Positions 2,715 to 11,043 of a DNA stretch of 64,000 bases are shown here, piece by piece. Positions within the stretch are counted from its first letter, which is position 1; every line of letters starts with the position of its first letter. Made by a program: the position numbers and the translations under genes. The DNA comes from a virus (lineage: Duplodnaviria > Caudoviricetes). Under the pieces are notes generated by a model. That model was not told the origin of the DNA and did no database searches. It saw only the letters and a list, made by a program, of their open reading frames with translations. The stretch lies in IMG/VR virus record IMGVR_UViG_3300027969_000041. One strand, given 5' to 3'.

Positions 2715-3095
2715 ATGACACGCTATTACGACGAACTGGCTGCTTACGAACGCAACGGATTTGATATCATTGTGGACAAATCATATGAAGACATGGATCC
2801 CAAAGACTGTTTTGATGACGACTGCTTCAACATCAAAGAAATGTATTCCGACATCGAGTGCGGGAACCTTGACTGGTTCATGCTCCGTGTCCGAGTTATG
2901 GTTGAGAACATCGAACTCAGTTCAGAGTTCTTGGGCGGATGCTTATACAAAGACGCCCGAGAAGTACTTACTGACGGGACTGCCGCAGACCTCATCGACC
3001 AAGCGATGGTAACAGCTAAGAAGGATGTCTATAGACTGTATAAGAAGTTCCAGGACATCAGCTGGGAACTTGATGCTGAAGGTTGTAATGTATGA
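2715..3095 (+). CDS. Early hypothetical protein
   Basis: AAGGAGC then ATG 2715 (in frame with track ORF 2631). Confidence 0.75.
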   Translation: MTRYYDELAAYERNGFDIIVDKSYEDMDPKDCFDDDCFNIKEMYSDIECGNLDWFMLRVRVMVENIELSSEFLGGCLYKDAREVLTDGTAADLIDQAMVTAKKDVYRLYKKFQDISWELDAEGCNV

Positions 3096-3328
3096 GCTAT
3101 AGACACATAGACGAAGTCATACAATGGGTAGGGACTGCATTCATCTTGGCAATGTATGCATTAATGAATTTCTTTCCAGAGTTCCGTGTCTACACTATTA
3201 TAACGGGACTCGGGGGTGCAGTCTGTTTCTTTGCGTGGGCCTACCGTGTGGCAAATAAACAACAGATGATTATCAACGGCGTAGCAATAGCCCTATGTGT
3301 GATAGGGTTATACAAAGCGTGGGGTTGA
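3092..3328 (+). CDS. Small membrane protein (about 3 TM segments)
   Basis: Three hydrophobic stretches in 78 aa; ATGA overlap. Confidence 0.7.
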   Translation: MSYRHIDEVIQWVGTAFILAMYALMNFFPEFRVYTIITGLGGAVCFFAWAYRVANKQQMIINGVAIALCVIGLYKAWG

Positions 3329-3359
3329 CAAAGTGGTAAAACCTTGCTATAATTAGCAC

Positions 3360-3586
3360 ATGGACAGTTAGAAAAGAGTTAAAGGTTACCTACACCGTTA
3401 GGGTCTTTAGGAGAGGAGCACAGGGGCCGCCCTACGCAATCCTAGAGAGCATGAAGGCTAGTGATACAGGCAACTGTATACGAGTTTGGCAGACGGGGTA
3501 TGTAGGCTGTAATGACGAAGGCAGATGCCTAGCAGACGGTGCTAGCGTCTAGTCCGGAGTTCCTTTACTCTTTTCTAACTGTCCAT
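3360..3586 (+). ncRNA. Unclassified structured ncRNA of about 227 nt
   Basis: Own promoter (3325/3348) with expected TSS at about 3360; no RBS-led ORF; 5' end 3360-3385 pairs with 3562-3586 (25 bp, one bulge); internal stems including a GCAA tetraloop hairpin. Confidence 0.75.
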
Positions 3587-3647
3587 TAGGGGTTGACAAT
3601 ATGGTAAAACCATGTTATAATATACACTTACACACTAAGGAGCAAAG

Positions 3648-3902
3648 ATGATCACAGCAGACACTATCGAAGTCCTAACTGCATATTCACCACAATACTT
3701 GACCAAAGCCGCACAGCTTGCAGGCTACAAGGGTCCAAACTTCACAGCGTGTAAGTTCCTGGGCATCACCAACGGTGGCCAGTTCTGCTACATGGCAGTC
3801 TTTCCAGTCAAAGGCGGCACCGACAGCACCAAAGTGTTCTTAAGCTATGACCATGATGAGGACAGGGTTATTGCAGACTACCAGTTGACAGAATGGGCAT
3901 AA
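3648..3902 (+). CDS. Early hypothetical protein
   Basis: Promoter 3593, AAGGAGC RBS. Confidence 0.8.
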   Translation: MITADTIEVLTAYSPQYLTKAAQLAGYKGPNFTACKFLGITNGGQFCYMAVFPVKGGTDSTKVFLSYDHDEDRVIADYQLTEWA

Positions 3903-5840: not shown

Positions 5841-5906
5841 TGGTTGACAACATGGTAAAACCATGTTATAATTAACACTTACACAGCAACACACTAGGAG
5901 CACAAA

Positions 5907-9292: not shown

Positions 9293-9480
9293 TCCTACAA
9301 GAGACCACACAGTGGAGCGACAGCAACGGCGCCAACCACATCTATGTCTTTAAGAAGAAGCCCGAAGGTCGGAGTGCCGAGGCTGTGGCTTATTTGCCAC
9401 AAGGGACAGATCGTGTGATCAAGTTCCGCACACCACTAAAACTCGACCTAAAAGGAAGGACTTTCCGGGCGGTTGACTAA
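9286..9480 (+). CDS. Early hypothetical protein
   Basis: Overlaps previous gene; ends inside next -35 box. Confidence 0.65.
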   Translation: MVILQETTQWSDSNGANHIYVFKKKPEGRSAEAVAYLPQGTDRVIKFRTPLKLDLKGRTFRAVD

Positions 9481-9526
9481 TTGGTAAAACCTTGCTATAA
9501 TACACTATCGCAACAAGGAGCACACT

Positions 9527-10847: not shown

Positions 10848-10991
10848 ATGAAACAAGTACAGAGCAAATCCAGCACCGGTGGCACCACTACCGAGTTCTT
10901 CGATGAGAACGGCGTTCGCGTCAAAGTAGTCCACAGTGCCGGCAAACAGTACAGTGGCAAGATTGCACAACAAGAAGCCAAAAAGGCTTGA
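10848..10991 (+). CDS. Small early hypothetical protein (47 aa, MKQVQSKSSTGG...)
   Basis: Promoter 10793, AAGGAGC RBS; stop is inside next TTGACA; not in ORF track. Confidence 0.65.
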   Translation: MKQVQSKSSTGGTTTEFFDENGVRVKVVHSAGKQYSGKIAQQEAKKA

Positions 10992-11043
10992 CAAACCGGT
11001 AAAACCTTGTTATAATACATACTTACACACTAAGGAGCACACT

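Follow-up and report, generated by a model that had tools for sequence, protein, structure and literature searches.

Covariation points to a new family of structured RNA genes in giant freshwater myoviruses, placed behind early promoters or within tRNA arrays

The viral DNA analyzed here, a stretch of 64,000 nucleotides (nt) from IMG/VR virus record IMGVR_UViG_3300027969_000041 (Duplodnaviria; Caudoviricetes) to which we refer as the window, carries at positions 3360 to 3586 of its + strand a 227-nt element that is, almost certainly, a genuine strand-specific gene for a structured non-coding RNA (ncRNA) of a new family. An initial annotation, made from the letters of the window, had proposed an undescribed promoter-driven structured ncRNA closed by a long terminal duplex, and this proposal is borne out by covariation among relatives, by the asymmetry between the two strands, by a fixed distance to the promoter and by the lack of any match in Rfam. 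The family falls outside all the catalogued classes with which it was compared in that database.

The + strand of the element folds to a minimum free energy of -95.3 kcal/mol (z = -6.9), which none of 200 shuffled sequences equalled; the - strand also folds (-79.9, z = -5.4), as expected for a helix-rich element. The terminal arms, ATGGACAGTTAGAAAAGAGTTAAAGG (3360-3385) and CCTTTACTCTTTTCTAACTGTCCAT (3562-3586), pair by eye at 25 of 26 positions, in keeping with the 25-base-pair (bp) duplex first described, and a repeat finder reports a terminal inverted repeat of 23 nt (96%). The architecture is that of a long terminal helix, P1 (about 21-26 bp), closing a three-way junction, one arm of which (P2) leads to a further junction from which P3 and P4 branch off, and the other is the P5 hairpin. 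The parts are the following, where R1 stands for the covariance model of the family that is described below.

3360-3586, + strand: structured ncRNA gene, 227 nt (fold z = -6.9; R1 score 145.3 bits; family covariation)
3360-3385, + strand: P1, 5' arm of the terminal duplex, pairing with 3562-3586
3386-3388, + strand: junction J1/2, UUA, invariant in the R1 alignment of the window's clade
3389-3399, + strand: P2, 5' strand, made of P2a CCUAC, an A and P2b CCGUU; partner 3492-3506
3400-3450, + strand: invariant AGG followed by the P3 domain, with basal stem UCUUUAGGA/UCCUAGAGA, internal loop and apical hairpin
3450-3456, + strand: conserved junction CAUGAAG
3457-3491, + strand: P4 domain and purine-rich junction, with the GNRA hairpin AUACAG-GCAA-CUGUAU at 3464-3479; its pairs covary
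3492-3506, + strand: P2, 3' strand, made of ACGGG, a GUA bulge and UGUAGG
3507-3515, + strand: junction J2/5, CU-GUAAUGA, of which GUAAUGA is nearly invariant across the family
3516-3559, + strand: P5 domain, with P5a AGGC/GUCU, P5b CUAGC/GCUAG and the cap AGACGGU at 3534-3540
3562-3586, + strand: P1, 3' arm; its G-U wobbles become A-C mismatches if read on the other strand

Relatives were gathered by pattern. A scan with the 5' arm gave matches in viral contigs, and the arm joined to the pattern GGTTACCTA gave 92 metagenome stretches; after de-duplication, 71 distinct full-length elements of 213-259 nt remained, which make up the window's clade. In total, more than 100 distinct variants were collected from freshwater viral and metagenome contigs, and the sources of the related contigs are all freshwater metagenomes except for one assembly labelled marine. 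The blocks common to the window's clade are the two arms plus GG-UUA-CCUA, UAGG, CAUGAAR, GUAAUGA and UUCC, which make up junction strands that hardly vary; the helical parts between these blocks vary, often as interchangeable P3, P4 and P5 modules. From 40 members we built the covariance model R1 (224 positions, 56 pairs), the structure of which consists of the pairs that most individual folds share. On the window, R1 scores 145.3 bits on the + strand (E about 1e-46, model positions 1-224) as compared with 41.6 bits on the - strand, so that the window holds a full-length match with P1 to P5 kept, on one strand.

Among 76 members of the window's clade, 94.0% of the cells pair and 28 of the 56 pairs have changed on both sides, with a covariation score of 0.274 as compared with 0.125 in shuffled alignments (0 of 500 reach the observed value) and at most 0.059 with slid partners. 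This set had been fished with the P1 pattern, hence P1 appeared invariant in it. The early impression of an invariant P1 sequence was an artefact of that fishing: a pattern restricted to the core (GGTTAMCTA..CC..TAGG ... TAGK..GTAATGA), which removes the bias, recovered 105 stretches of viral contigs with many P1 sequences, among them 53 distinct 5' arms, mostly A/U-rich. Nearly all of these arms have a complementary 3' arm over about 20-26 bp despite their differing sequence, and in a few lineages P1 is short and an additional 5' module is found in its stead. When 80 members spanning both sets are considered, 93.9% of the cells pair, 45 of the 56 pairs have changed on both sides (21 of 24 in P1) and double changes occupy 739 cells as compared with 206 in shuffles; the covariation score rises to 0.470, against 0.159 shuffled (again 0 of 500) and at most 0.091 with slid partners.

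The exchanges can be followed by eye as well. P2a CCUAC/GUAGG becomes CCUAG/CUAGG or ACUAG/CUAGU, P2b CCGU/GCGG becomes CCAC/GUGG, and P5b CUAGC/GCUAG, the pairs of which covary strongly, becomes CCAGU/ACUGG or UAUACG/CGUAUA. In P2, the C-G to G-C swaps of P2a and the G-C to A-U swaps of P2b leave 100% of the cells paired. Moreover, many family pairs, in P1 and elsewhere, are G-U and would be A-C on the opposite strand. Because of these G-U pairs and of the model scores (145 versus 42 bits), the RNA is placed on the + strand.

Several details of the fold proposed at the outset can be judged against the family. Both the stem formed by 3389-3399 with 3492-3506 (P2) and the hairpin ATACAG-GCAA-CTGTAT (P4) exist in the window and, through compensatory changes, are retained family-wide. 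With respect to the two crossed pairings suggested for the P3 region, TAGGA/TCCTA holds as part of P3, whereas the TAGGG/CCCTA pseudoknot is not supported, since UAGG is invariant and its partner varies freely. In line with this, a screen for covarying column pairs outside the model returned no pseudoknot or tertiary pair, only extra pairs in P3 (one of them) and in P5. The three-way junction once assigned to 3515-3549 turns out to be, in the family, a bulged hairpin made of P5a, P5b and the loop AGACGGU. The P3 apical loop is GCCG in the window and GACG in most relatives, and a GACGK loop caps P5 in 48 of the 71 variants. Likenesses to a kink-turn, a hammerhead, an 11-nt receptor and the CR-I region of RNase P were noticed by eye and set aside, their defining bases not being conserved family-wide.

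Transcription of the window's copy would be driven by an early promoter, and a second one follows the element:

3325-3353, + strand: early sigma-70-type promoter, with TTGACA, a 17-nt spacer holding the GGTAAAACC box, and TG-TATAAT
3593-3621, + strand: next early promoter, serving an 84-aa gene at 3648-3902 that has a ribosome-binding site (RBS)

The first of these matches the sigma-70-type consensus hexamers at 12 of 12 positions, plus the TG of an extended -10, and 6 nt separate its -10 box from the first base of the RNA (3360). In all, the window has five early promoters of near-identical sequence, this one among them (3325-3353, 3593-3621, 5844-5872, 9473-9501 and 10988-11016), all of which hold GGTAAAACC at a fixed place in the spacer, where 0 occurrences are expected by chance; the box is also retained in homologous promoters of relatives, such as L002, L024, L038 and L045. 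In 63 of the 69 testable relatives of the window's clade, the gap between TTGACA-N17-TATAAT and the start of the element is exactly 6 nt, and this fixed spacing supports the predicted transcription start at the first base of the duplex. The annotated absence of an RBS and an open reading frame (ORF) behind this consensus promoter also stands: none lies between the start of the element and the promoter at 3593-3621, and the sole internal ORF (3451-3552, 33 aa) is not kept in relatives. A coding reading was accordingly rejected, the frame from the conserved AUG ranging from 2 to 46 codons across members. Among the terminator-like sites looked for in the window, no intrinsic terminator lies near or 3' of the element, and ARAGORN finds no tRNA or transfer-messenger RNA (tmRNA) in the window. 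The two promoters thus bracket the RNA as a cassette, and the window's copy is a promoter-driven, free-standing version of it.

The same bracketing by two promoter copies, with no other duplication seen, is found at the loci that have the RNA. In four relatives (L003, L018, L029 and L032), the RNA is missing: the 78-aa gene is again upstream, and after it come a single promoter and a protein gene. This presence/absence pattern fits an early region built of one-promoter-per-gene cassettes, which could be exchanged by recombination between promoters. The 78-aa ORF (3092-3328 in the window), the end of which falls within the -35 region of the RNA's promoter, is the upstream neighbour in most relatives, with or without the RNA, and by eye its sequence suggests a small membrane protein.

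What follows the RNA is variable. In the window's clade, another promoter lies within 1-7 nt downstream in about half of the cases; tRNA-Asp(GUC) lies 0-130 nt downstream, directly or after a small module, in 17 of the 71 variants; four relatives (L015, L126, L058 and L141) show an RBS and an ORF 4-6 nt after the RNA; and the remaining loci have other conserved RNA-like modules. No one type of gene is constantly found downstream: promoters, tRNAs, other RNA modules and unrelated ORFs all occur in that position.

The tRNA-array context, the most informative setting of the RNA in many relatives, was missed by the initial annotation. Among the 59 distinct cores recovered by the core-pattern scan, 33 have a same-strand tRNA gene within 800 nt downstream (the first one being Asp in 18, Glu in 8, Leu in 3, Ser in 2, Gln in 1 and Met in 1) and 15 have one within 700 nt upstream. 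Many copies of the wider family sit within tRNA arrays without a promoter of their own. L188 has an array of ten tRNAs in which tRNA-Glu and tRNA-Asp are 221 nt apart, and the RNA takes up this interval exactly, abutting the one tRNA at its 5' end and the other at its 3' end. Large contigs carry 23 tRNAs, and in G001 and G002 the distance from the RNA to tRNA genes is about 2-4 kb.

Three further small modules were observed around the RNA. Module 'X', of ~105 nt (L163:8665-8775 on the - strand, L052:7497-7609 and L026:6214-6323), has a purine-rich start followed by the hairpins AACCC...GGGUU and CGAGU...ACUCG and no match in Rfam; it lies between promoter and RNA in some relatives, and it may be inserted as a branch within P1 in those lineages whose P1 is short. 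A ~70-nt tRNA-like element, GUCCC...GGGAC-GCCA, with an acceptor-like stem and an encoded CCA, lies between the RNA and tRNA-Asp in L089 (204-272) and is also downstream of the RNA in L056, L062, L066, L067, L071 and L109; ARAGORN does not call it a tRNA. Finally, a short module consisting of a small hairpin and then GUAAGUCCAAUCUAAU (variant ACGCCCAAUCUAA) occurs after the RNA or the tRNA-like piece (L017:3322-3355, L089:280-325, L100, L103, L119, L125, L083, L096, L112 and L055), and could be a processing or termination signal.

The novelty of the family is supported by several searches. Rfam 15 at gathering scores has no match anywhere in the window. Over 3250-3700, an Infernal-type search at E<=10 returned no tRNA, tmRNA, RNase P, signal recognition particle (SRP) or 6S RNA, in agreement with the hallmarks found wanting from the start, nor any match to Y RNA, YrlA, GOLLD, ROOL, manA, riboswitches, small ribozymes or any other Rfam family. 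On relatives L026, L052, L050 and L063, Rfam gave no match except for true tRNAs. A blastn comparison of the element and of a consensus-like relative with 50,697 phage records gave no match, and R1 found nothing in PA5oct and Phosso, which are the closest phages in culture, although this model leans on sequences of the window's clade and could miss a distant homologue. A pattern scan of 185,579 prokaryote species genomes yielded two hits, both in metagenome-assembled genomes of gut Clostridia, which R1 rejects and which we attribute to chance.

With regard to the carrier, the phage proteins encoded in the window include a T4-type terminase, a sheath protein, a gp15-like protein and a DnaB-type helicase. 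Judged by the terminase, with 55% identity, the nearest relative in culture is the jumbo Pseudomonas phage PA5oct. The contigs of RNA-carrying relatives measure 320-353 kb where they are rated 92-100% complete, and fragments of 82-149 kb are rated 23-44%. Therefore, the window comes from an uncultured clade of freshwater jumbo myoviruses with genomes of roughly 350 kb (about 320-355 kb across the clade). The clade genomes examined (G004-G008) have 20 or more tRNA genes. Exactly one copy of the RNA is present in each of the five genomes rated 92-100% complete, and second copies occur in some contigs: two abutting, diverged copies in tandem in L235 (75-531, - strand), and two diverged copies in L089 (1-201 and 816-1047), separated by ~600 nt that hold two small promoter-driven ORFs. 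The five near-complete genomes have no gene for RNase III and none with a double-stranded RNA (dsRNA)-binding domain.

Relatives of the RNA are matched by contigs from public lake metatranscriptomes. In four runs, each belonging to a different study, such contigs span the promoter, the RNA and the adjoining tRNA and do not cover the outer flanks of 120 nt and 80 nt; their depth is 2-7, some begin upstream of the predicted start, and neither ends nor strand can be read from them. Runs compared with the window itself gave mostly matches to the repeated promoter, plus pieces of related RNAs. These contigs are compatible with transcription, short of a discrete RNA.

The setting of the family recalls other phage RNAs. 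ROOL and GOLLD are large RNAs of phages or prophages, often near tRNA islands, that form RNA cages (10.1101/2024.12.08.627333), and the marine motif manA, of less than 200 nt, self-assembles into a 60-mer cage (10.64898/2026.07.01.735769). The likeness to GOLLD and ROOL is one of setting only, all three RNAs being phage-borne, often in or beside tRNA islands and elaborately folded with covarying pairs. The Rfam models of GOLLD and ROOL, however, do not match even at E<=10, and the present RNA differs from them in size (about 200-260 nt, against about 580 nt for ROOL and about 800 nt for GOLLD) and in its architecture of a long closing helix with two three-way junctions. The stable small RNAs rnaC and rnaD of phage T4 (species 1 and 2) lie in the T4 tRNA cluster, a setting like that of this RNA, and mature through the tRNA-processing pathway. 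Nevertheless, they measure 139 and 119 nt as compared with about 220, rnaC has a tRNA-like T-arm which our RNA lacks, and R1 run with filters off over the T4 tRNA region reaches at best 6.8 bits, on short hairpins, with no homology to either RNA. A catalogue of candidate structured RNAs drawn from IMG/VR, the same data source, has candidates of 29-151 nt, shorter than this RNA (PMC10690425), and may contain fragments of it.

Taken together, these findings describe a stand-alone structured-ncRNA gene present once per genome in giant T4-like freshwater myoviruses, and they lead us to a model, in which the RNA is stable, that we hold tentatively, at somewhat short of an even chance. In the window's clade, the RNA would be transcribed from a consensus early promoter starting at the first base of P1, and its 3' end would arise by processing, unless the RNA remains within a read-through early transcript, there being no terminator. 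Within tRNA arrays, on the basis of the established tRNA-processing pathway, the ends would be set at the base of P1 by RNase P acting on the downstream tRNA and by 3' maturation of the upstream tRNA. P1 would act as a clamp protecting both ends, and the invariant junctions together with the GACG-type loops would form a recognition surface. The RNA would act in trans, perhaps tied to the tRNAs or the translation apparatus of the phage, and could serve as a scaffold that binds proteins or tRNAs, or form an assembly, of RNA alone or with protein; the link to tRNAs and translation is our best guess, by analogy with the comparable settings of GOLLD, ROOL and T4 RNAs C and D.

Several points weigh against this model or against the evidence beneath it. 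The window has no tRNA at all, so that the link to tRNAs is one of the family and not of the locus, and in some relatives a tRNA other than Asp lies downstream. Neither a partner protein or target nor homology to an RNA of known function was found, and the few relatives with an RBS and ORF 4-6 nt after the RNA would fit a 5' leader. The alignments used for counting were fitted to R1, which favours structure, though the margins are still large. In addition, the metatranscriptome contigs are shallow and cover the promoter, and could reflect DNA carry-over or read-through.

A bolder version of the model, which we consider unlikely, is that of a self-organising phage RNA that works on tRNAs, either as a multimer (RNA-only or ribonucleoprotein) or by capturing a specific tRNA. 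In the multimeric form, by analogy with ROOL, GOLLD and manA, P1 might serve as a rigid spoke and the GNRA and GACG loops as contacts. As for capture, we note speculatively that UGUCU, at positions 33-37 in the anticodon loop of tRNA-Asp, could pair (with one wobble) with the conserved P5 loop AGACG(K)U, a complementarity that was read post hoc from the flanks of several relatives in which this tRNA directly follows the RNA; in other relatives, other tRNAs follow.

Other explanations deserve to be weighed against the trans-acting, P1-clamped RNA favoured here. Two functions proposed in the initial annotation, an RNAP-binding RNA and a decoy against defence systems, find no support in the data. 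As a decoy or sponge against a host factor or defence system, the RNA could titrate RNA-binding proteins or nucleases of the host, with an anticodon nuclease and a dsRNA sensor as examples. The perfect early promoter in the window's clade would have it made at once on infection, its two hairpins displaying the same GACG motif might suit the site of a dimeric protein, and it adjoins phage tRNAs, which in other phages counter tRNA-cleaving defences. No defence gene, target, mimicry of a known substrate or Rfam match was found for it, however, and many copies lie in tRNA arrays without a promoter of their own and with no tie to a particular defence, which leaves this a doubtful option. A cis-acting 5' leader, be it a 5'-end stabiliser, an antiterminator of the HK022 put type or a riboswitch, would account for the position of the RNA at the 5' end of the transcript in those 63 of 69 relatives, with no terminator after it, and for the ORFs that closely follow it in L015, L126, L058 and L141. 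Yet the downstream content varies widely, being in about half of the cases another strong promoter, the copies of the wider family lie between tRNAs with no promoter of their own, and a conserved helix closing the 5' and 3' ends better suits an excised, free-standing RNA; we rate the leader as improbable, slightly more so than the decoy. That the RNA mimics a tRNA or the SRP Alu domain and docks on the ribosome is suggested by the order of closing helix, arm A, GUAAU linker, arm B and closing helix, that is, a helix-closed three-way junction with two arms joined by a GUAAU-containing strand, and by the tRNA-array context. SRP Alu domains have a UGUAAU U-turn between helices 3 and 4, which the GUAAUGA between P2 and P5 recalls. 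Nonetheless, no SRP model matches at E<=10, conservation of the U-turn U is lacking (mostly A stands in front of GUAAU), the two arms have like loops (GACG) in place of complementary ones, there is no S-domain and P2 is branched; a shared 5-mer is weak evidence, and such mimicry is very unlikely.

Readings based on the long terminal stem fare no better. In a Y-RNA-like molecule, the terminal stem would be bound by the ring protein Ro (Rsr) and the structured module would be an effector domain. The stem formed by both ends, the module and the location in tRNA arrays, where some phage Y RNA-like genes also lie, are in line with this notion. The YrlA and Y_RNA models, however, do not match the element, the sole YrlA hit (in L052) overlaps true tRNAs at 31.5 bits as compared with a cut-off of 69 bits, and no gene with a TROVE/Ro domain (PF05731) is present in the five genomes rated 92-100% complete, so that we give this possibility very little credence, marginally less than the SRP mimic. 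The inverted terminal arms of 21-26 nt also brought to mind the a1/a2 arms of a retron and hence a retron-like template RNA or, as proposed in the initial annotation, a mimic of one. Pairing of the 5' and 3' ends through inverted repeats, as in retron msr-msd RNAs, is not specific to retrons, though; the interior is a branched fold with no msr/msd pair, no large ORF follows in the loci examined, and no reverse transcriptase (PF00078/RVT_1) is encoded in the five genomes or adjoins the RNA in more than 100 loci, which makes either form highly improbable. Finally, a miniature inverted-repeat transposable element or another DNA-level inverted-repeat element, the alternative raised against the RNA reading from the beginning, would explain the terminal inverted repeat of 23-26 nt and the varying presence at the same site between relatives. 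We regard it as excluded, with scarcely any residual doubt, because of copy number (one per near-complete genome) and strand asymmetry (in G-U pairs and model scores); besides, the sole flanking repeat is the promoter, with no target-site duplication, the interior helices covary and the position is fixed relative to the promoter or to the tRNA ends.

Complex and strongly conserved RNA folds with no assigned function are rare, and past ones proved to be ribozymes, riboswitches or, recently, RNA cages. The family described here is compact (about 220 nt), single-copy and represented by more than 100 variants with textbook covariation, which makes it tractable for structure determination. If the version of our model in which the RNA works on tRNAs were true, it would give a giant phage a means, at the level of RNA, to manage its tRNA pool or to protect that pool against nucleases of the host. 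More generally, an RNA that lies under an early promoter or precisely between tRNAs offers an entry to what giant phages do to host translation.

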